Positions 1 to 22,700 of a stretch of DNA of 31,570 nt are shown here, piece after piece. The notes under the pieces are model-generated. The model ran no database searches and had not been told where the DNA came from. It saw only the letters and a program-made list of their open reading frames with translations. The position numbers and the translations under genes were made by a program. Origin of the DNA: an uncultured Gammaproteobacteria bacterium (GTDB lineage: Bacteria; Patescibacteriota; Patescibacteriia; Patescibacteriales; UBA12465); assembly GCA_964431155.1 (NCBI GenBank), contig CAYSIJ010000001.1, forward strand, positions 30,130-61,699, given 5' to 3'. Numbering within the stretch: position 1 is the stretch's first letter; the number at the start of each line of letters is the position of its first letter.

Positions 1-1113
1 ATTTACAAAGTTAGAAAAATAAGGAATACCATATTTAGCAGTCATTTCCCAAGCCGGCTTCAAACATTCTCTATCCCAATCAAATTCTTTATCAATAGTA
101 TAAGTAGGAATCGGGAAGCCAAATACTCGTCCAGTGGAATCACCAGCAATCATTACTTCGGCGAAAGCCTGATTAAACATGTCCATTTCCGCTTGAAAAT
201 CCTTGTATTGCTCTGGCATTATTTCGCCGCCAATTACCACGCTCTCTTCGCCAATCATTTTTGAAGGAGTAACATCAAGAGTAACATTAGTGAATGGAGT
301 TTGGAAACCAACGCGAGTTGGAACATTGACATTGAACATGAATTCCTGCAAACCCTGTTTCACTTCTTCATAGGTTAATTTGTCATAACGAATAAAAGGA
401 GCGAGATAAGTATCAAAATTGGCGAAAGCCTGAGCGCCAGCGGCTTCCCCCTGAAGAGTGTAGAAGAAATTAACAATTTGTCCCAAAGCACTGCGAAAAT
501 GTTTGGCTGGTTTGCTTTGGATTTTTTCTTTAACTCCGCCGAAGCCCCTCAACAACAAATCTTTCAAATCCCAGCCACAACAATAAGGAGCAAGCAGGCC
601 GAGGTCATGAATATGCATGTCACCGTTAACATGAGCCAAGCGAATATTTTCTGGATAGAGTTTGTTCAGCCAATATTTGGCGGAGATGGCGGAGGCAAGA
701 TAATTATTCAAGCCCTGAACCGAAAAACTCATGTTGCTGTTTTCTTTCAAACGCCAATCGGAACGGCCGAGATAATCTTCCATTAATTTTTCTTCAACGG
801 TGGATTGAGTGATGTCACGAACCTGGCGATGTTGTTCGCGATAAAGAATATAAGCCTTGGCAACTTTGATTTTTTTGTTTTCAATCAGAATTTCTTCCAC
901 CACATCCTGAATCTCTTCAACTGCTGGAATGCTGTTTGGGTGAAATTTTTTGTTGACCCGAGCAATTACCTCAGAAACCAAATGCTTTGCTGCTACTTCA
1001 TCATAATCATCAACTGCCTTGGCGGCGTTGACGATGGCCTGCAAAATTTTCTCTTCGGAGAAGGGGGCGATATCGCCAGATCTTTTTCTAATTTTGGTAA
1101 TCGCTTCGGACAT
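1..1113 (-). CDS. nrdD: Anaerobic (class III) ribonucleoside-triphosphate reductase with N-terminal ATP cone; partial, runs off the window's left edge
   Basis: Not in the ORF track. Manual translation from ATG 1113 is open to base 1: MSEAITKIRKRSGDIAPFSEEKI (ATP cone)...HIHDLG...YCCGWDL...QGEAAGAQAF...PTRVGFQTPFTNVT...FGFPIPTY. These are typical NrdD motifs, and the gene lies directly downstream of nrdR. Confidence 0.95.
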   Translation of the reverse strand, partial: MSEAITKIRKRSGDIAPFSEEKILQAIVNAAKAVDDYDEVAAKHLVSEVIARVNKKFHPNSIPAVEEIQDVVEEILIENKKIKVAKAYILYREQHRQVRDITQSTVEEKLMEDYLGRSDWRLKENSNMSFSVQGLNNYLASAISAKYWLNKLYPENIRLAHVNGDMHIHDLGLLAPYCCGWDLKDLLLRGFGGVKEKIQSKPAKHFRSALGQIVNFFYTLQGEAAGAQAFANFDTYLAPFIRYDKLTYEEVKQGLQEFMFNVNVPTRVGFQTPFTNVTLDVTPSKMIGEESVVIGGEIMPEQYKDFQAEMDMFNQAFAEVMIAGDSTGRVFGFPIPTYTIDKEFDWDRECLKPAWEMTAKYGIPYFSNFVN

Positions 1114-1131
1114 AAAGATTTTTTATTTTAA

Positions 1132-1590
1132 TTATTTTTTTTCTTTGATTAATTTATTCAACTCTTTTCTAAACTCTTGCGCATCTTTGAATGATTCATA
1201 GACTGAGGCATAACGGATATAGGCAACCTGATCTACTTTTTTTAATTGTTTCATCACAATCGCGCCAACTTGGCGAGAAGTAATTTCACTTTTTTTCAAA
1301 CGCTGAATTTCTCTTTCAATTGAATGAACTAATTTTTTGAAACTGTCTTCAGTGATTGGTCTTTTCTCAAAAGATTTTTTGAGACCGCTTATCAACTTTT
1401 CTCTGCTATAAGATTCCCGACGACCATCTCTTTTGACAATTGAAAGGTCAAGCAATTCCACTTCTTCATAAGTTGAAAAACGAAAATTGCATTTCAAGCA
1501 TTCACGACGGCGACGAATGGAAAGGCCATCAGTAGCAACGCGGGAATCAACCACTTTTGTATCATCAAAGTAACAAATTGGGCATTTCAT
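1132..1590 (-). CDS. nrdR: Transcriptional repressor NrdR
   Basis: MKCPIC...TKVVDSR...IRRRRECLKCNFRFSTYE zinc ribbon, ATP cone (VKRDGRRE), and C-terminal VAYIRYASVY. Confidence 0.97.
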   Translation of the reverse strand: MKCPICYFDDTKVVDSRVATDGLSIRRRRECLKCNFRFSTYEEVELLDLSIVKRDGRRESYSREKLISGLKKSFEKRPITEDSFKKLVHSIEREIQRLKKSEITSRQVGAIVMKQLKKVDQVAYIRYASVYESFKDAQEFRKELNKLIKEKK

Positions 1591-1603
1591 AAAAGATTGA
1601 TAA

Positions 1604-1619
1604 ATTCAACATTTTGTGG
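1604..1619. promoter_or_regulatory. NrdR box 1
   Basis: attCaAcATtTtGtgg matches the NrdR-box consensus acaCwAtATaTwGtgt; 32 bp start-to-start from box 2, upstream of nrdR-nrdD. Confidence 0.8.
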
Positions 1620-1635
1620 GGTTTTCTTGCTCCTA

Positions 1636-1651
1636 CCACTAAATGTTGTGC
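1636..1651. promoter_or_regulatory. NrdR box 2
   Basis: ccaCtAaATgTtGtgc matches the NrdR-box consensus and sits just downstream of the predicted -10 element. Confidence 0.8.
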
Positions 1652-1659
1652 TTATTTGT

Positions 1660-1687
1660 ATTTTAGCAGAAATCCATATCAAGTAAA
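1660..1687 (-). promoter_or_regulatory. Putative sigma70 promoter of nrdR-nrdD
   Basis: Minus strand TTTACT-16 bp-TAAAAT, with an extended -10 (TGcTAAAAT). Confidence 0.55.
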
Positions 1688-1738
1688 AGAGGGTAAAATA
1701 AAGGGAAAAATTATTCTTTGACAAACGAGCGGAAAAAC

Positions 1739-1747
1739 TGTGGATAA
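1739..1747 (-). promoter_or_regulatory. DnaA box
   Basis: tgtggataa is the reverse complement of TTATCCACA, a perfect DnaA box, about 50 bp upstream of the nrd promoter. Confidence 0.6.
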
Positions 1748-1799
1748 GTCCAATTGCCTTCCGAAATAATCGCGCAAGAATCATACATTCATTATATAC

Positions 1800-1828
1800 A
1801 AAAATGAGGCCAAAATAGCCTCATTTTT
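1800..1828. terminator. Rho-independent terminator, just downstream of the displaced ftsZ tail copy
   Basis: aaaaatgaggc-caaaata-gcctcattttt perfect stem with A/T tracts on both sides. Confidence 0.8.
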
Positions 1829-1855
1829 TATGTCGATATCTTATTTTTTATTAAC

Positions 1856-1874
1856 TCATCCTCTTCCGAATAAA
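1856..1874. repeat. 19-bp direct repeat, copy A (displaced ftsZ 3' end, att-like)
   Basis: tcatcctcttccgaataaa, identical to 3437-3455. On the minus strand its context reads ...YPTFIRKRMS*, versus ftsZ ...IPAFIRKRMM*. Confidence 0.85.
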
Positions 1875-1940
1875 TGTCGGATAATGAGCTAGTCCTCTCA
1901 ATGAATCAACATTTGACTGAAATTCTTATCAATTTTCAAG

Positions 1941-2036
1941 TTAGATGCCAGTCGGACGATAAGAATGCTCGCGTGCATGGCCGGTTTTATATTGCTCGCC
2001 GACTTTCTGACTGAACTTTTTTACATTGATGCTCAT
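1941..2036 (-). pseudogene. N-terminal fragment resembling type ISP/IIG restriction-modification (N6 methyltransferase-fusion) enzymes
   Basis: Manual translation MSINVKKFSQKVGEQYKTGHAREHSYRPTGI*. Y-x-T-G-x-A-x-E-H-S-Y-R-P resembles the N-terminus of these enzymes as I recall it; the frame stops immediately afterwards. Confidence 0.5.
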
Positions 2037-2127
2037 ATAATATGATTATTTGCTATTTTAAAAAAATTTCAAACTAATCTCATACTTTTCCCGCCCCCAA
2101 CATCTCAATCTTCTTCATATCAAAATT

Positions 2128-2301
2128 TTATTCTTCCATCTTTTTCAAAATCTCCTCCACCTGCTCATTTGTAATGTTTCTACCAGAAAGCCGCAGCGAA
2201 GAGCCAGTGCTTTCAATCAGACACTTTTTCCTGAGCTCAGCCAGATAATCCTGGCTCATCTTTGCATTTGATGCATGAATTTTAATATTCTTATTTTTCA
2301 T
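2128..2301 (-). pseudogene. 57-aa ORF resembling the N-terminal helices of Fic-family proteins (truncated, no HPFxDGNGR motif)
   Basis: Manual translation MKNKNIKIHASNAKMSQDYLAELRKKCLIESTGSSLRLSGRNITNEQVEEILKKMEE*, compared with the recalled Fic pattern YLxELRKxAxIESIGSSTRIEG...TxEEVExLL. Starts 24 bp downstream of the wHTH-PRTase stop. Confidence 0.55.
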
Positions 2302-2324
2302 AAAGCATTATAAAGCTACATTTT

Positions 2325-3293
2325 TTAAACCTCGCTAATCACATCAAATCCCTTAAAGCTTCCTGTTATAGCTAGTCCGATAACTTTCTTAGCGATTCTT
2401 TTATCCTTGATTTTCTTGGCAATTTCATTCAATGTCGCACCAGAACCTACGGCATCGTCAACCAAGAGAATATTATTAAAATGTCCTGATTCTTCCAGGG
2501 CAAAAGTCTTCTGAGCGTTTTCGATTCTGTCATTAAGCTTGTTCAAGGTCTTTTGCGGGATTATAATATCTGTCTTGATTTTAGTAATTGTTATCTCTTT
2601 AACTGGCAGATTCAGCTTTTTTTTCAGCTCATTCATGAACTGCACTTCTCTTTTTACAGTCGGTTGTACAAATCCAACGCCGTTAATGTTAAATTTTTTT
2701 ATCATCTTTAGGATTGCCGGCCTGACATCATCAATCAATTCTTTCATCAGTCTCCTGCTCTGGCTTTGCTTGGCATATAATAGCATTTGACCAAGCTTCG
2801 TTTTGCCAAATCTCTCAATACTGTAAAAATCAAGATAATATACATCGTCTAGGTATAAATCTTTAAACGTACCTTTCATCTTTTGCATTCCGTCAATAAG
2901 ATCATCTTTCCTAAAACCGGAATATTTTTTCAAAGTAACCAGATATTCTTTAGCAGTTTTTTCAATCGGCAATTTCTGTTTTTCACACCAATAAACAAAC
3001 CCGGCAAATCCTTCCATCTTTTCCCCGCTCGGAGTAATGGTAAAATAATTTTTATCGATTATATTTTTAGTTTCGTTATCAACTTCATGACTAGTTTTTT
3101 CTGACTCCTTTTCTTTGAGGGTATAAAAAACTTTCGGCGGTCTTCCGGTCTTAATTATTTGTTTTCCGGACAGCATGTCTGGCAGATGTTTATATAAAGC
3201 TTGTCTGGAAATATCCAAATATTCAGCTATTTCATTAGCTGTTATTTGACCTTTTTCTTTAATTAGTTTAATTATTTTTTCCCGCGTATCCAT
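2325..3293 (-). CDS. N-terminal winged-HTH fused to a ComF-like phosphoribosyltransferase (PRTase) domain
   Basis: ITANEIAEYLDISRQALYKHL is an HTH. The C-terminus has ILLVDDAVGSGATLNEIAKKI (PRPP-binding loop) and a ComF-like PQKTL...RIENAQKTF. Confidence 0.8.
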   Translation of the reverse strand: MDTREKIIKLIKEKGQITANEIAEYLDISRQALYKHLPDMLSGKQIIKTGRPPKVFYTLKEKESEKTSHEVDNETKNIIDKNYFTITPSGEKMEGFAGFVYWCEKQKLPIEKTAKEYLVTLKKYSGFRKDDLIDGMQKMKGTFKDLYLDDVYYLDFYSIERFGKTKLGQMLLYAKQSQSRRLMKELIDDVRPAILKMIKKFNINGVGFVQPTVKREVQFMNELKKKLNLPVKEITITKIKTDIIIPQKTLNKLNDRIENAQKTFALEESGHFNNILLVDDAVGSGATLNEIAKKIKDKRIAKKVIGLAITGSFKGFDVISEV

Positions 3294-3319
3294 AATTTTT
3301 TAATTACTCTTATTTTAAT

Positions 3320-3361
3320 ATTTTATCAGGTTGACAGTTGACTGTCAACTGTCAACCTGAT
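3320..3361 (-). promoter_or_regulatory. Consensus promoter (TTGACA-17-TAAAAT) embedded in a perfect 37-bp palindrome; putative operator
   Basis: atcaggttgacagttgac-t-gtcaactgtcaacctgat (3325-3361). Minus-strand -35 at 3348-3343, -10 at 3325-3320 preceded by TG. Confidence 0.8.
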
Positions 3362-3376
3362 TACTACAATCATACA

Positions 3377-3402
3377 AAAACGAGGCATTTCAGCCCCGTT
3401 TT
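3377..3402 (-). terminator. Terminator of ftsA-ftsZ
   Basis: Minus-strand RNA aaaacggggc-ugaaau-gccucguuuu followed by U; the sequence resembles the 1800-1828 hairpin. Confidence 0.75.
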
Positions 3403-3431
3403 ACTATTTAAATACTATATTTTAACTAATA

Positions 3432-4703
3432 TTACATCATCCTCTTCCGAATAAAGGCGGGGATACTCAAATCGTCATCATCCTCTTCAACTGGCTCTTC
3501 TTTCTTGGGCTGAGATTTTGCGCCAAATAAGTTTTTCCTAACGAATGCCGGAGTGTCCAAATCTTCTTCCTCCTCTTCTTTCTCGGTGGCTTTAACTGGG
3601 GGAACTAAAGGCTTCAAAGGAGAAGTTTTTGCCGTTGGTAAGACATTCTTATTTTTTTCTGGCCATGTCTTGCCATTTTCTTTTTCAACATTCTCAATAA
3701 AATGATTTGGAGAATAGCTCTTGTGCGCTTCTCCCTGCTTACTATTTCCCCGACCATCAAAACCGGTCGCCACAACTGTAATCTTAACCATGTCTTTCAA
3801 ATCTTCATCAATCACCGCACCAAAAATAATTTTTGCTTCTTCATCAGCGGCAGAGGTGATAACTTTGGCCGCTTCACTAACTTCATTCATGCTCATATCA
3901 ACGCCGCCAGTAATCGTGAAAACAATCCCTCGAGCACCGTCAATTGACATGTCCAGCAAATTGGAATTAATTGCCGCCCGAGCAGCTTCCACAGCTCTAT
4001 TTTCACCGCTAGCCTGCCCAATACCCATTAAAGCTGAGCCAGCGTTTGACATCACTGCTTTAACATCGGCGAAGTCAGCATTAATAACTCCCGGAACAGT
4101 GATAATCTCAGCGATTCCTTGAACGCCTTGGCGTAAAACATCATCAGTGATATTAAAAGCCTCCAAGAGAGTGGTTTTTTTATCAATCACTTGAAGCAAT
4201 TTGTCGTTGGAAACTGTAATAATGGTATCAACTTTGTCGGCCAATTCAGCAAAGGCGCGATCCGCAATATTTTTCCTCTGCCCCCCTTCAAACATAAAAG
4301 GTTTAGTGACCACTGCTACGGTTAAAGCTCCCAATTCACGGGCAATTTCCGCAACAATTGGCGACGCACCAGATCCAGTGCCGCCACCCAAACCACAAGT
4401 AACAAAAACCATGTTGCAACCCTTCAAGGCTTCACGAATTTCATTTTGTGACTCTTCGGCAGCGCCTTTGCCAAGTTCTGGGTTCATCCCAGCTCCCAGG
4501 CCACGAGTCACCGTTTTACCAATGTGAATCTTCTCACTGGCTTTGTTGTAATGAAGAGCTTGGATGTCGGTGTTAATTGCCACAAACTCCACCCCCTTAA
4601 TGCCGGCTTCAATCATTCTATTTATTGCACTTCCGCCACCACCACCAACTCCAACTACCTTAATTTTTGCAAAAGTTTCTACTTCTGGTTTTACTTCAGC
4701 CAT
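3432..4703 (-). CDS. ftsZ: Cell division protein FtsZ
   Basis: IKVVGVGGGG, NTDIQAL, GGGTGSG tubulin signature, NADFADV T7 loop, and C-terminal IPAFIRK peptide. Confidence 0.99.
   Translation of the reverse strand: MAEVKPEVETFAKIKVVGVGGGGGSAINRMIEAGIKGVEFVAINTDIQALHYNKASEKIHIGKTVTRGLGAGMNPELGKGAAEESQNEIREALKGCNMVFVTCGLGGGTGSGASPIVAEIARELGALTVAVVTKPFMFEGGQRKNIADRAFAELADKVDTIITVSNDKLLQVIDKKTTLLEAFNITDDVLRQGVQGIAEIITVPGVINADFADVKAVMSNAGSALMGIGQASGENRAVEAARAAINSNLLDMSIDGARGIVFTITGGVDMSMNEVSEAAKVITSAADEEAKIIFGAVIDEDLKDMVKITVVATGFDGRGNSKQGEAHKSYSPNHFIENVEKENGKTWPEKNKNVLPTAKTSPLKPLVPPVKATEKEEEEEDLDTPAFVRKNLFGAKSQPKKEEPVEEDDDDLSIPAFIRKRMM
3437..3455. repeat. 19-bp direct repeat, copy B (within the ftsZ 3' end)
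   Basis: Identical to 1856-1874; covers the FIRKRM codons. Confidence 0.85.
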
Positions 4704-4721
4704 AGTTATGTAAATTATTTT

Positions 4722-5981
4722 TTATTTTGGCATTATTTTTTGGAGCAAGCCTTTTGCTTTACCAAAAAAATTATCAACATTTTTTTTGAAATTTCCGTTT
4801 CCTGATAATCCAAATTCATTGCGACTTGACCAGACCACCAAGCCAAGAGCGCTTAAAAATTCAGGGCGAGAAACTTTATCAATCACAGTTTTAATATTTC
4901 GAGCAGTACCGACACAAGCCGGTAAGCGAAGTTTTTTCTTGGCACTTTCTACTAAATTTTCCAAATAAGCACCGCCACCGACAAAAACCACCCCTGCCGG
5001 CAACATCCCGGAACGATCAATTTTTTTCAATTCATTATCAATTTTTTCAAAAATTTCTTCAACCCGGGCATCAATAATTTGAGCAATATATTTTCTGGAA
5101 ACCGTTTCAATATCGTCATTTACTTCTTCTTCTCGTACCAAATCACGGATATCAATTTCCTCGTCTTGATTAACATGGTCTTTCAGGGTACTGCCATATT
5201 CGCATTTGATGCGTTCGGCTAAATTGATTGGGCAACGCAAACCAAGGGCAACGTCAGCGGTGATATGTTCTGCACCAATCGGCAAAATAGCGGTGTGAAT
5301 CAAATTTCTCTCTTCATAAACCGCCAAGGAGGTAGTTGAAGAGCCAAGATTTACCAATACCACACCCAATTCTTTTTGTTTGGTGCTAAGCACGGCTTCC
5401 GCAGCGGCCAAAGGAGACAAAACTAAGTCCTCAATTTCCAACCCGGTTCGATGAATTGCTTTGGTGAGATTTTTTAATTGACTACCAAGACCTTGAATAA
5501 TCAAAATTTCAACTTCCAGCCGAATACCGCTCATACCAATCGGGTCCTTGATGTCTTCCTGGCTATCAACGGCGAATTTTATCGGCATGACATGGAGAAT
5601 TTCATAGTTCACTGGCACCGCCATTGCTTGAGCGGCTTCAATTGCTCTTTCAACATCGTGTTCGCTGATTTCTCCGTCGCTTTTGCTGACCGCCACCACC
5701 CCCTTGCTTCGTTCGCATTTGATGTATGGGTCATTGATGGAAATAGAAACTGCGCTAATCGGCACGCCAACTAACCTCTCGGCTTTTTCCAGACAAGCAG
5801 AAATTGAAGAAGTGGTTTCTTCAATACTATTTACCACCCCTCGGTTAACGCCGGAAGTTGGCACAGAAACAGCGCCGATAATTTGCAGTTCTTCTCCGGC
5901 CAAACCATTAATTTTTTGGCCGATAACTAGCCTAATTTCGGTTGAACCGATGTCTAAACCAGCAATAATATTGTCTTTCAT
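4722..5981 (-). CDS. ftsA: Cell division protein FtsA
   Basis: IAGLDIGSTEI, VNLGSSTT, IITADVA-like HITADVALGL, VFVGGGA, and a C-terminal amphipathic helix; directly upstream of ftsZ. Confidence 0.98.
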   Translation of the reverse strand: MKDNIIAGLDIGSTEIRLVIGQKINGLAGEELQIIGAVSVPTSGVNRGVVNSIEETTSSISACLEKAERLVGVPISAVSISINDPYIKCERSKGVVAVSKSDGEISEHDVERAIEAAQAMAVPVNYEILHVMPIKFAVDSQEDIKDPIGMSGIRLEVEILIIQGLGSQLKNLTKAIHRTGLEIEDLVLSPLAAAEAVLSTKQKELGVVLVNLGSSTTSLAVYEERNLIHTAILPIGAEHITADVALGLRCPINLAERIKCEYGSTLKDHVNQDEEIDIRDLVREEEVNDDIETVSRKYIAQIIDARVEEIFEKIDNELKKIDRSGMLPAGVVFVGGGAYLENLVESAKKKLRLPACVGTARNIKTVIDKVSRPEFLSALGLVVWSSRNEFGLSGNGNFKKNVDNFFGKAKGLLQKIMPK

Positions 5982-6037
5982 AGTTGAAATTAGAAACTAA
6001 GACGTAAGACCGCCTTAAAAGACTATTTAATATTTAC

Positions 6038-19000: not shown

Positions 19001-19719
19001 CTTGGCCAAGTAGAAATAGTTAGATGAGGGAGATAACTACCTGATGGTAAATCCGGAAAACGACCGTTTTTTTCTTGATAATTTTTTAAGGATTCTTTTA
19101 TCTCAGCCAAAACTGACAAACGTTTTACATCGCGGGTAATTTTGGCTTTTAAGCTATCGCAAAATCCCTTGCCAAGACAATCGCCATCAACCAAACAAGT
19201 GGAGGTTGCCGCCACCGTAATCGCACACTTTCCAGGAGCCGCTAAATTATTATTGAATTTCCAATTAGCAATAATCTGGCCGAGCGCATCGGTGGTGCCA
19301 GGCTTTGAATCTTGGTTATAAGAGATTAGATAAATGTTGGTGTGAATGATATTTCCTAAAACATTGGTGGCATTAACATAAACTGTCCGGCCATCGCGGA
19401 TTGCTTCATAGCCATCAACAATCAAAAATTGCGGCGATCCGGAAAAACCTTTTTCGCGATACCAGCGTTCAATTCCATAATGCTCATCGTTTGGCAGAAT
19501 TCTAATTGCCACCGCATCCAAACTTTCACCTGATACGGCCTGAAAATGATCACTAGCATCAACGGCGGAATCTATCTCAGCTGCAGTCTGGTCGGCAGCC
19601 TGGCAAGGATTATTTACCAAGAAGAAACAACTGACAACCAACAAAAATAACCCAGCTGACAACAAAAAAGGCTGGTAATTTTTACCTCTATTAAACCGCT
19701 GGAACATTATTGGTTTCAT
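16063..19719 (-). CDS. 1218-aa secreted Cys-rich surface protein: pilin-like helix, Ig-like repeats, CGDG (DUF4215/Myxococcus Cys-rich-like) repeats, C-terminal class-I-GATase-like fold
   Basis: Signal peptide ending CQA; RDVKRLSVLAEIKESLKNYQEKNGRFP; three YCGDGI repeats; LKILQVY...YNLIVFG...FIKNGGMVVFG. Confidence 0.7.
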   Translation of the reverse strand: MKPIMFQRFNRGKNYQPFLLSAGLFLLVVSCFFLVNNPCQAADQTAAEIDSAVDASDHFQAVSGESLDAVAIRILPNDEHYGIERWYREKGFSGSPQFLIVDGYEAIRDGRTVYVNATNVLGNIIHTNIYLISYNQDSKPGTTDALGQIIANWKFNNNLAAPGKCAITVAATSTCLVDGDCLGKGFCDSLKAKITRDVKRLSVLAEIKESLKNYQEKNGRFPDLPSGSYLPHLTISTWPSWQSTFGAQLGLDKSLVDPVNKLGQCPGFDAVTCWNKNLSTFAAKTNPLEFPNNSLVMAYQSENSGAKYSLCASMETHGSADSVNNYNTVDRLLSQGACSVKIDAPTSPVNPVFEAANLQGELGQEFSGFIKVANPSGNPLTWELSVISGASIFDGGVTLVDTNNPNQKKVYSRKALTVGAAEISIKVSDNRLGQQTKVFKITISKSKPKIEAENSDFILNNNRLSYSFYLNDDSVSDSGTPNYTLSYTRPSLSGGSSGILPSGLESKIEKIERGRFKVTIFQNSGRIDVPAGSNKVLNYRVTLNNSSGGSSVKDFIINLKQDKPVFDYQCEENVRKFGAYDCVVKLLNSKDHDITYSVAGLTGTNLSTSTDPSKVGTVRISGNALGVPPTPPTINRNFPCSTQSYQKFVSENDQENAATLQESFFKKYDDVLKSVILKAESQLESQQQEMQEENNILPSALLSPVLRVVTWAKNVLQIKEAFAESLGAPAANQQATKQQVCFQRTNPALDTNNTSGNLSVVTSEEEANYASRFDEYDETRNTSTGTSTPAPQSEFPITITATNEYGASATKSFVLKINSYCGDGIKQAPNQEKRGGIYNDGMEECDGVGGVALNVADSSASRQYSCTTGVGSTTPNPITSNNYCRATGGYCGDGICGSIDSTFTTDDHEVYDPGFNTNQYCHTDCSYCGDGIVQNNQGEQCDPGDPYSVQAYLGEYCNNRCKIARQLKILQVYAGNSSGAANTISVKAILNTLGNNPTDSSFRDNVAIVDNDTSGQVDYSVDTVSMNVFNSSPTSYLPVGNILEKYNLIVFGMGNNLSYPDPLARVLVENFIKNGGMVVFGGKTLNGTIFSDYSGTVPNTFSPVNATMIVHANNSREIFSLSTGNITVNTWQPSYLLKAANSACGPQCGGSACSAASSLLTNIFHIPTSPTYSWASVCNRVASIQLGHNNGAALKPEEYKIFGNLIYHLSTQISGDNF

Positions 19720-19747
19720 ATTTTCAAGAAAAAATTAAGTTAAGATA

Positions 19748-19756
19748 ATTATACCA
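19748..19756 (-). promoter_or_regulatory. Internal extended -10 promoter upstream of the 1218-aa gene
   Basis: TGgTATAAT immediately after the stop codon of the 1862-aa gene. Confidence 0.55.
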
Positions 19757-19760
19757 CAAA

Positions 19761-22700
19761 TTATTTATTACTGAAAAAATAATATTCTTTTAAAATATCC
19801 CAGATGCATAAACCGCCGGAACAATTGGCGTCCGAAGAACAAGACTGAGCATTGTTATTACTACAAACCTTACTTGGACTTTTTGGAATAGCACTCTCGG
19901 AAATTTCCGGCAAATCATCACTTGTACCTGGCTTCCCCGCATCGCGACAATAATAAAAATCGTAATTAAAAGGATTGTTCGCGAAATTATTTTTATCACG
20001 CCACGGTGCCCAAGTGCCATCGGATTTTATTCTTGGCCAAGGATTCGCGCAAATAAAGACAAACAGCTCAGAACTGGATTTTTCTCCATTACCGCCGAAA
20101 TATTGATTACCGGTGGACATTTCCACGGTGGAATAAAGCAAAGTCTTGCCATCGTTAATTTTGTCAGCCGCAGTCGCAATAATTTTATTAGCCATTAATG
20201 AAACAGTAGTTGTAGAAATTAAGGAAGGATTTTCTGATTTGAATACCCAGGTCCAATTATAGCCAGTAACAGGATTTAATAGTTGATCATCAATACTATA
20301 AGCATTGGCTTCAAAAACTTTGTCACGATCACGCCTGGAATCAAACGAGGCATTTCCAGGGGTGTCATCAGCTGAATCATTGGCGGCCGTGGAAAACAAG
20401 TATTGATTAGGGACTAAGGTTGTATAATCAATTTCACAAATATCAGCTCTGGTGGTAAAAGTACTGACAAAAGCCTTGTATAGGTTATTGTTTATTTTTG
20501 CTTTAATTGCTCCTTGGTAAAACCCGCTATCTTGAGGCTGGCTAGCATATTTTTTGATATTCTGATCTATAACTTCGCCTATCTCTTCCCTTCTGATATT
20601 TAAATCACCTAGCTCCATAGAAAAATCTTGGACGTCAAGTTCCAGGCTAGACTTTAACATTTTAGAGCGAATTTCTCTTATCTTTTTCTTTAATTCTTCT
20701 AGCTCTTCAATTTGTGTTCCTAAATCCTTCCAGTTTGCGCCATTGACAGCTTTGGCAATCATCAAACCTGTATTATTTCTCCGTTTTTCTGCTTCATCCA
20801 ACAGATCATTAGTTGCTAAGATTTCGTTAAAATTTTTATTGATTTCGGCATCAGAAACTTTTTTCTGATAATTTTTAATCTGATTCTCGTACTCTTTTAA
20901 GTCACTATGGAGAACCTGAAAATCTGCTGTTGAAAAACCGGAATCATCCACAACACTCATCCCAACACCATCGCCACTCAAAACACCGTCCGCCGGAGAA
21001 TTTTCCTGGTTATTTCCCCTGACAAAAATTAAATATTTTTGACCACTCTTGAGCACAGCTTTTGGCTTAATAAGCGCAACTGTGGTCGTGGCAAAGTTTT
21101 TCACCCGATCCACAGCTTCAACATTGATGGGGACTTGGCAATAAGTATGATTAGCGGTATTGTCAGCCAAGGCTTTGTCTTTCTTGAAAATATTAAAAAA
21201 TGAAATAATTATTTTTTCAACACCCTGATAGGCTTTGACAAAAATATTTTCTTTTAAATTATCGGCTGCCAAAGGGGTGCTAGTCGGACACTTGAAGCCG
21301 GCCACATGCTCTTCCAAAAGTTTTACATTATTACTATTAAGACTGGTGCCAATCATGATGCGATCAAAATTGATTTGAAGAGCAGCGTTTCGGCAAACTC
21401 CAGTGCTGTCAGCAGCCGGGGAAACGCCGCTGATTGTTGGCTTGGGATAGCAACAAGAATCCACACCACAACCACTTAGACCAACCCCGCCGGGATTACA
21501 TTCACCATCATTAGAGCAACCACAACAAAGACCGCGTGAAGCACCACTGCAGTCTCCTTTGTTGGAAAGGCAGGATAATTTTGAATTGATTGCTTTGCAA
21601 GCGGTATCCGTTTTTGGATTACAACAGCAAACCCCACATTCACCGCCTGCTGAAGGCGCTGCGGAAGTTATTGTTCCGCCAGTGGAAGTTAGGCAAGAAA
21701 GATTTGACGTGGCGCCAAAAACCCCGGAACAAATTGAAGTATCGCATGTATAATTATTAGTGGTTTTCCCGGCAGTGCCACAACTTAGACCCAGGCCAGT
21801 GTTGCCGCCCGATGGTTTACAATTAGCTTCGCAAGCTGTGATGGAAGAATAGGTGCCATTTCTTCCAGGAGTACTGGAAGCACATTTATTATTTTCTGTA
21901 ATTGCATTATTTGGATCAGAGCAATTGTAATAAGCGCAATATCCTGGATCACTAGGAATTAAATTTCCAACACCACCGCGACAGACTGGCCCACCAGTCG
22001 CCTTGGCATCCAAACAGCAAACGGAAGAATGCGCCATGCATTCATCAGTGTCCAAAGTAGCACAATCGACGCAAGCACCGGTCGGGAAAGCCCCAGAAGT
22101 CGCACAGAACTGACCATTGTGACCTGAACAGTTGCAGGCAGCATCTCTGGAGTCAGTGTCGGCTCCGGCCGCAAAGCAACCAGAACATTTGCCAAATCCC
22201 GAATTGTCAGTTGGATTGGTATCAGAACCGCAAGTTCCACCACAAGTTAATGGCGCACAGCAATCTTGGTTACCATTGCTAATTTGGCAACAACATTCGC
22301 AAGAAGGTGCTTCGTCAATAACACACTCCCCCGAGGAATTACAAGTCTCTCCGCCTTTACATTGCAAATCAATTTTACATTTTCCCTCTAAGCATTTTTC
22401 TGTATTCTCACACAATGAACAATTATTACTAGTTTTTAGATCTACAGTGGAGGCACCTTTAGCGCAAAGGCCGCCATTTATTTTTATCCAACCATTGATA
22501 CAAGTGGTGTTTGAGCTATAAACTAGACGTTGGCGATTTTCATATTCTGGTAAAACTTTACAGAAAGAGCCTATTTTTTCTGTGTCGCTACAAATTTTTT
22601 CTGGATTTTTAATGCAACTGCCGTTAACGACAGAATAACCACTCGGACAACAAGGTCCTTTTGGCGCCGCGACTACTGTTGAACCGGAAGAACATTTACC

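Follow-up and report, generated by a model that had tools for sequence, protein, structure and literature searches.

In Escherichia coli, the element e14 and phage 21 insert into the icd gene, and the displaced pseudo-3'-end of that gene (icd', 163 bp) remains as attR, while the terminal residues of the host protein can change (PMC6379469). Prophages and islands that target tRNA or tmRNA genes also use a conserved gene 3' end as attB, which attP restores, and variable cargo and remnants accumulate at such sites. The dusA integrases (PMC4482086) and the ffs-targeting phiEf11 (PMC12540744) are examples of a dedicated integrase clade for one housekeeping gene, and both families are also recognised by an integrase beside a duplicated gene end. 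The present analysis concerns a window of 31,570 nucleotides (the whole stretch of DNA that was analysed), in which the 1.6 kb between the cell-division gene ftsZ and nrdR are very probably an integrase-less remnant of a tyrosine-integrase element inserted at the 3' end of ftsZ. A first-pass annotation had proposed a decayed islet with ftsZ as its attachment (att) site, and homology of the element arms, a swap of the FtsZ tail, a distinct integrase clade and empty sites in relatives all agree with that proposal.

The mechanism is already known, being of the e14/icd type; what is new is the target, namely the codons of the FtsZ C-terminal peptide, together with the integrase clade and the host phylum. 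In full-text searches of a limited literature, ftsZ was nowhere described as an att site. As in icd, a tyrosine-integrase element occupies the 3' end of a protein-coding gene and a substitute end keeps the open reading frame (ORF) functional (PMC6379469), whereas the target in the window is the essential ftsZ gene of Patescibacteria, only 7-9 codons are duplicated (19 bp identical), and a substitute terminator is supplied as well. The integrases of the ftsZ family differ further from those of the icd elements in forming their own Xer-like clade of 302-aa proteins, and in the window the integrase appears to have been lost. Unlike the islands at tRNA and tmRNA genes, the elements at ftsZ target a conserved run of codons, those of the FtsZ C-terminal peptide PAFIRK, rather than a structural RNA. 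The dusA elements use the 5' end of a non-essential gene and the ffs elements an RNA gene, whereas the ftsZ family uses the extreme 3' end.

Every gene in the first 6 kb of the window lies on the minus strand, and the locus is framed as follows.

1-1113, minus strand: nrdD (partial)
1132-1590, minus strand: nrdR
3432-4703, minus strand: ftsZ, 423 aa, intact (Pfam Tubulin 2.5e-48, FtsZ_C 7e-34)
4722-5981, minus strand: ftsA

A search of the whole window revealed no tRNA or tmRNA genes, and positions 1-6000 gave no match to Rfam families. The 19-mer TCATCCTCTTCCGAATAAA, which the first-pass annotation had located in ftsZ and again at 1856-1874, is indeed present at 3437-3455 and 1856-1874, with a chance expectation of 0.03 and two matches in 0 of 100 shuffles; a check for a widespread repeat across the window, tolerating as many as 3 mismatches, found no third copy. 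On the minus strand, the proximal copy reads ..LSIPAFIRKRMM-stop (..DDDDLSIPAFIRKRMM-stop) and forms the real FtsZ C-terminus, and the distal copy reads ..GLAHYPTFIRKRMS-stop (..SLRGLAHYPTFIRKRMS-stop) with no FtsZ upstream; stop codons 22 codons before the distal copy indicate that it is not within a gene. The homology of the two copies extends over about 95 bp (1783-1880 versus 3365-3462), in which the core is identical at 19 of 19 positions and the flanks at about 74%. Hairpins followed by a T-run start 23-27 nt past the stop codons of both copies and fold far beyond shuffled sequence, at 3377-3402 on the ftsZ side (-15.8 kcal/mol, z -3.5) and at 1800-1828 beside the distal copy (-15.8 kcal/mol, z -4.5). 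The earlier statements that the second copy carries a stop and its own terminator, and that the two terminators resemble each other, were borne out, the resemblance falling inside the 95-bp homology. Terminator likeness was also considered as a mark of the recombination site and rejected, as the same style occurs once more in the window; these are ordinary terminators of shared descent.

Read as att sites, the two copies and their surroundings comprise the following features.

3437-3455, minus strand: attL core, 19 bp, identical to the distal copy
3445-3455, minus strand: 11 bp TTTATTCGGAA, encoding F-I-R-K, common to the majority of the family's att sites, although a few differ by one base
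3366-3436, minus strand: element-derived right arm (P'), with the last FtsZ codon and stop, a spacer and the terminator hairpin 3377-3402
1856-1874, minus strand: attR core, the second 19-mer
1875-1939, minus strand: remnant of the integrase-proximal attP arm (P), by likeness to the arms of loci L219 and L131
1796-1855, minus strand: displaced native ftsZ end (..M|S-stop), with the stop at 1851-1853, a spacer and the native hairpin 1800-1828

The TTTATTCGGAA segment is likely to be the crossover region, and we infer the exact position of the crossover. The locus thus has a direct repeat, of which one copy falls within the 3' end of its target, ftsZ, and the two ends differ in type. At attL the window reads CCCGCC TTTATTCGGAAGAGGATGA TGTAA, corresponding to RMM-stop and to the element-type ending ATGATGTAA, so that the final FtsZ residue and stop (..RM|M-stop) fall outside the core and are of the element type. 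At attR it reads CCGACA TTTATTCGGAAGAGGATGA GTTAA, corresponding to RMS-stop, a single transition away from the native AAT TAA. The native FtsZ ending of the clade is RKRMN-stop (in the element-free L001 and L002, and also in L004), and a single nucleotide separates the AGT TAA at the window attR from the AAT TAA/TAG found in L002, in L004 and at the L203 attR. The target ORF is intact with the end codons of the element, and the native end stands at attR. Judged from these sequences, the native end of FtsZ and the native terminator survive at the distal copy, and the present FtsZ tail was supplied by the element. The distance from the distal stop to the nrdR ATG, about 260 bp, is close to that of empty-site spacers in relatives (258 and 261 bp).

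The arms point in the same direction. Over the arm and core (1939-1851), the window matches the arm beside the L219 integrase at 89.8% identity (88 aligned nt) and that of L131 at 87.4%, and the 64 nt to the left of the attR core bear no likeness to ftsZ; the inner side of attR therefore consists of element-derived arm DNA. On the attL side, the 3366-3436 arm is 84% identical to DNA downstream of ftsZ in L100 (120 nt past the stop), whose FtsZ is 70% identical, and L217 matches this arm at 88.5% from directly past its ftsZ stop. A separate feature of the protein itself is a second, internal C-terminal-peptide motif (EDLxTPxFVRKNLFG), which precedes the terminal DDLSIPAFIRKRM by about 30 residues (3535-3578 versus 3445-3488) and is present in the window, L001-L004 and L022; other Falkowbacteria have a single copy, and the internal motif could be an old in-frame tail duplication.

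The related elements encode a distinct clade of tyrosine integrases, comprising about 27 clusters at 90% identity (P0121-P0147) whose identity to the L131 integrase is 51% or more, whereas the next matches, at about 40%, are XerC/D-like. The L131 integrase matches Pfam Phage_integrase (PF00589, 3.2e-38) and XerD/XerC models (8e-56, below the equivalog cut-offs), and its motifs ATGMR, HSFRHS, LGHS and IYTHY provide the R..HxxR..Y signature of tyrosine recombinases, which is carried by the related integrases and not by the window. An ftsZ-tail mimic (..PAFIRKKM. and stop), with no FtsZ upstream, lies 60-360 nt past the integrase stop in all nine clusters examined (L131, L036/L205, L203/L204, L206, L207-211, L105, L166, L219 and L220/221), and in five of these (L131, L105, L203, L205 and L207-211) nrdR and nrdD follow downstream of the integrase and mimic. 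A recombinase gene thus adjoins the att site in the related elements, and the integrases next to tail-encoding repeats, for which the first-pass annotation suggested a search, exist and form this clade. L131 carries, in this order, cargo genes (AAA ATPase, macro domain, nuclease), one small ORF, the integrase, GLREGLAHHPAFIRKKMM-stop, 2.2 kb, nrdR and nrdD, and L105 has the same layout. Decay intermediates also exist: the L166 integrase is cut after 64 aa and fused beside the core, and L222 contains an in-frame stop. In L220/L221, phage genes flank the integrase and mimic on both sides, with a PBECR2 giant protein on one side and terminase (TerL), portal, methylase and Tad2-like genes on the other, a gene order consistent with an attP within a phage genome. 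L125 combines the P arm and core with an element-type right flank like that of L100, and may represent either an attP (or a tandem junction) or the attR of a host resembling L100.

Scans for the tail pattern gave a similar picture. Among viral contigs, the single match with no FtsZ upstream was L036, in which a 302-aa tyrosine integrase is followed after 120 nt by ..CYPAFIRKKMM-stop and a terminator; L036 was considered as an attP and rejected, since the longer locus L205 has nrdR-nrdD downstream and is therefore an integrated attR. In the metagenome scan at least 120 loci matched, and among those listed seven have a tail copy with no FtsZ upstream, the remainder being genuine ftsZ ends. One of the seven, L138, was discarded as a chance occurrence within another coding frame.

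Several genes accompany the integrases of this clade. A conserved ORF of 63-103 aa (CxxC..CxxxH-like, with no Pfam match) precedes every clade integrase, overlapping its start in some loci (L036 1519-1803, L131 5982-6293, L203 7675-7890 and L207 514-726), and is a candidate excisionase or directionality factor. Some of the elements bear counter-defence or diversification genes, including a diversity-generating retroelement (bAvd, reverse transcriptase and target protein) at 4285-8789 of L206 and a Tad2-like gene at 19661-19942 of the L220 phage. In the L036/L205 host, the gap between attR and nrdR is filled by a gene for a 2643-aa secreted protein (L205 11318-19249).

A paired view of the two ends of an occupied site is provided by L022 and L203. 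In L022 a prophage (AAA_24, ParB-methyltransferase, TerS, TerL) begins at the ftsZ stop, and the integrase P0127 adjoins nrdR on a contig of 104,492 bp, which is taken as the contig of L022 because the sizes are identical. The gene order on the P0127 contig is type I restriction system, DUF87, integrase, 430 bp, nrdR and nrdD. L203, a near-identical strain whose integrase protein is identical to P0127, supplies the attR of L022. The L022 attL reads ..AGTATC CCAGCATTTATTCGGAA AAAAATGATGTAG, encoding FIRKKMM-stop, and the L203 attR reads ..GAACAT CCAGCATTTATTCGGAA GAGGATGAATTAG, encoding FIRKRMN-stop and followed by a terminator, a DnaA box and nrdR. The presence of KKMM-stop at attL and of the native RMN-stop at attR indicates that integration swapped the last FtsZ codons and moved the native end to attR. 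Among 45 viral loci related to the L022 terminase, no tail mimic was found, nor any integrase as far as tested. About 2 kb past the large terminase of L022 (15330-17296) contain no ORF longer than 63 aa and may represent degraded structural genes.

The closest FtsZ relatives of the window belong to Candidatus Falkowbacteria (Patescibacteria, the candidate phyla radiation, CPR), and synteny was compared in about 25 of these relatives. The order ftsA-ftsZ-(spacer)-nrdR-nrdD is conserved among them, and the spacer varies in content and in length from 183 bp to 5.7 kb.

183, 258 and 261 bp: empty spacer with terminator and nrdR promoter only (L019, L016 and L033, respectively)
About 400 bp: short spacer (L008, L012)
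Glycosyltransferase (L006, L014, L018, L020)
274-aa protein with no assigned role (L007, L009, L023)
UvrD-like helicase (L001, L002)
Heavy-metal ATPases, up to 5.7 kb (L010, L011, L013, L015, L027)
Winged helix-turn-helix phosphoribosyltransferase (wHTH-PRTase) alone (L004, L005)
Prophage from the ftsZ stop codon, with AAA_24, ParB-methylase, small and large terminase (L003, L022)

The comparison of ftsZ-nrdR synteny that had been proposed with the islet therefore yielded unoccupied sites as well as differing, unrelated occupants.

Between attL and attR, the window retains a short series of genes and regulatory features.

3320-3361, minus strand: perfect 18+18 palindrome (3325-3361) over a TTGACA-17-TAAAAT promoter (-27.2 kcal/mol, z -8.9)
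2325-3293, minus strand: wHTH and phosphoribosyltransferase-like protein, 322 aa, the first gene inside attL (Pfam HTH_11 2.9e-8, Pribosyltran 2.9e-5)
2128-2301, minus strand: 57-aa ORF ('fic57'), found directly 3' of full-length Fic genes in L100, L125 and L212
1941-2036, minus strand: N-terminal stub of a type ISP restriction-modification (RM) gene, 31 aa, 28-31 codons, 83% nt identity to the start of the intact L217 gene

The two Pfam domains confirm the wHTH-PRTase that had been read between the copies. The palindrome arms (ATCAGGTTGACAGTTGAC/GTCAACTGTCAACCTGAT) are kept in L004, L212, L217 and L218, and the palindrome is the probable autoregulatory operator of this gene, as suggested by its position over the promoter. 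Together, the spacer, terminator, palindrome-promoter and wHTH-PRTase gene form a module (3434-2325) that recurs at 88.5% nt identity in L217, where it begins directly past the ftsZ stop (host FtsZ 68% identical in aa), at 92.6% in L212 (host FtsZ 65%) and at 93.7% in L218 (host genes not visible). Identity of 88-94% for the module, against only 65-68% for FtsZ where host genes are visible, shows that it behaves as mobile DNA and spread horizontally in recent times. Different cargo follows the module at each locus: L217 has a type ISP RM gene, L218 has AbiEi/AbiEii and L212 has an M16 peptidase; in L212 the Fic gene and the 57-aa ORF precede the module.

The wHTH-PRTase is likely, rather than proven, to be original cargo of the element, because its family is very large in Patescibacteria (3835 matches) and because it also occurs in L004 and L005. 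Its role could be that of a regulator, by analogy with PurR, in which a DNA-binding domain is joined to a PRTase-like sensor. Alternatively, its matches to PADLOC profiles (PsyrT 1.1e-17, in the C-terminal half of the profile, and retron PRTase_III-A 9e-8) suggest that it could be a defence effector. It has the same wHTH and PRTase domain pair as PsyrTA and retron III-A, but has no adjacent helicase, reverse transcriptase or msr-msd, possesses its own palindromic operator and belongs to a family that is near-ubiquitous in Patescibacteria; the likeness is at the level of domains, and the two-gene or reverse-transcriptase-linked architecture of those systems is absent.

The other two genes are small. 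For the 57-aa ORF, which had been called a Fic-like stub, the link to Fic stood, as it accompanies Fic genes elsewhere, whereas the idea of a stub did not, as it is a conserved small ORF rather than a demonstrably broken gene. It has no Pfam, NCBIfam or PADLOC match and no Fic catalytic motif; the motif HxFx(D/E)GNGRxxR is found only in the adjacent 353-aa Fic proteins of L100 and L125 (SoFic 6.7e-55 in L100), and the ORF itself contains no Fic/SoFic domain. The 31-aa stub likewise gave no Pfam, NCBIfam or PADLOC match and is identified through its intact L217 homologue alone, which matches the type ISP RM N-terminus at 5e-19 and upholds the earlier reading of an RM-like stub. About 28 homologous codons are left of what in full length is a type ISP nuclease-methylase-translocase.

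The history that best accounts for these features begins with an element of a family that comprises tailed phages and non-phage islands of Patescibacteria, whose attP very probably recombined with the ftsZ 3' end in the window lineage or a close ancestor, the crossover probably falling within the F-I-R-K codons of the FtsZ C-terminal peptide. The attP bears its own copy of the FtsZ end and a terminator, because of which FtsZ stays intact with an element-supplied ending. The native ftsZ end and terminator were shifted to the far side, beside the nrdR promoter, as attR. A later deletion would have removed the integrase, its small upstream ORF, the outer arm and all but about 28 codons of the type ISP gene, so that of the integrase-proximal arm only the final ~65 nt stayed, joined to the restriction stub; because the stub directly adjoins the arm, one deletion may have extended from most of the ISP gene through the integrase and outer arm. 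What is left between attL and attR is the element terminator, the operator-promoter and wHTH-PRTase gene, the 57-aa ORF and the restriction stub. The repeats, arm homology, link between integrase and mimic, tail swap, empty sites with variable cargo and recent horizontal spread of the wHTH-PRTase module are observed; an integrase would once have been present at the window locus, the wHTH-PRTase would have arrived with the element, and any present function of the remnant can only be presumed.

Several observations weigh against an insertion of this kind. No integrase homologue was found within the window, as the first-pass annotation had already remarked, and the window is for this reason regarded as a decayed remnant and not an active member. 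Both att junctions of an intact element were not seen on one contig: among the examined contigs of the integrase and wHTH-PRTase clusters, no ftsZ was found within 10 kb upstream of the integrase, and the L022 attR was read from the near-identical L203 and a gene list. No excised or empty form was found for the strain, and the only two contigs with an identical FtsZ both carry the islet. The wHTH-PRTase family also occurs away from ftsZ, for example after rpsI. L004 and L005 carry a wHTH-PRTase (about 75% aa identity) at the same collinear position with no attR, following a native-type FtsZ tail (RMN-stop) in L004 (the tail was read in L004, not in L005). Compared with these two, the window is longer by 574 bp (1750-2323), which hold the 57-aa ORF, the stub of the restriction gene and the distal tail copy with its terminator. 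Imprecise excision may have given the element a host segment made up of tail, terminator and wHTH-PRTase, which was delivered here later, or L004 and L005 may have lost the distal part. Finally, no second tail copy was found in the ftsZ-nrdR spacers of 24 relatives; the duplication is therefore not general to variable spacers, and other processes, such as homologous replacement between ftsZ and nrdR, probably also shape the locus.

Such replacement leads to an improbable but more serious alternative, in which the att-flanked segment was imported ready-made, recombination in the flanks having swapped the spacer for DNA of a related Patescibacterium with an already decayed element. Because spacers differ among relatives, mostly with no att duplicate, flank-mediated replacement is likely common, and the 88-94% identity of the attL-side module in distant hosts also fits an import; however, the right side of attR has the clade-specific RKRM codons and a tail 1 nt from RMN-stop, and the spacing from attR to nrdR matches local empty sites. 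Even if imported, the structure would still go back to an insertion that an integrase made in ftsZ. Alternatively, slippage or unequal crossing-over could have duplicated the ftsZ 3' end and terminator locally; such a duplication, followed by unrelated insertions between the copies and involving no site-specific recombination, would explain why the copies and terminators are homologous variants of one ftsZ-downstream region. It is nevertheless highly improbable, as the 64 nt before the distal core are unlike ftsZ and 87-90% identical to the L219/L131 integrase arms, the two tails are of element and native type as in L022/L203, and the flanks have diverged to about 74% around a fully identical core. 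That the repeat is a chance match or a member of a dispersed family has AT-rich composition alone in its favour and a negligible probability, being refuted by the low expectation and the lack of further window copies; in addition, the second copy has an in-frame stop, after which a terminator follows.

With insertion at ftsZ as the preferred reading, the window itself is only a fixed, integrase-less remnant, and its value lies in the family that it revealed. Temperate phages and integrative elements of Patescibacteria are poorly known, and an integrase clade, an att core (TTTATTCGGAA) and a landing locus are now defined, providing a simple rule by which prophages and islands can be found and delimited in Patescibacteria genomes. 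In annotation, the short FtsZ-like pseudo-end and the additional terminator upstream of nrdR are accounted for as attR. The family indicates that an essential division gene is usable as an att site, given a replacement tail and terminator on the element, and lysogens bear FtsZ with changed terminal residues, whose effect on the host is testable. A broader, and rather doubtful, proposition is that the FtsZ C-terminal-peptide codons are a general attB of Patescibacteria-wide phages and islands, and that the ftsZ-nrdR spacer is a principal site at which defence genes (restriction-modification, Fic, AbiE and wHTH-PRTase) land in these reduced genomes. If this were true, each integration would rewrite the FtsZ residues past the partner-binding peptide, lysogeny could alter cell division, and the internal PxFVRKNLF motif could be a scar of such an integration.

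Downstream of the distal terminator, the region upstream of nrdR contains its own conserved features.

1590-1795, minus strand: nrdR upstream region, with a GATTCTTGCGCGATTATT motif (1765-1782), a DnaA box and NrdR boxes
1739-1747: DnaA box TGTGGATAA, matching the consensus, about 150 nt upstream of nrdR
1590-1665: NrdR-box inverted repeats

Homology with relatives resumes at 1749 in L002, L004 and L005 and at 1698 in L001. The DnaA box and NrdR boxes are present in nearly all relatives (not in L019), in either orientation, and mark the restart of homology past the variable spacers. In L100 (~1700-1745), L125 (~2225-2265) and L212 (~6600), the interval from the ftsZ terminator to the Fic gene contains three tandem GCGCGATTCTT copies, which may be an operator, and a two-copy GCGCGATTCTT remnant is found 3' of the distal terminator in the window (1765-1782). 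Farther along, nrdD contains an intein in some relatives (L207-L209, with an Intein_splicing match), and the nrdD of L033 (9916-11994) is split by about 1 kb.

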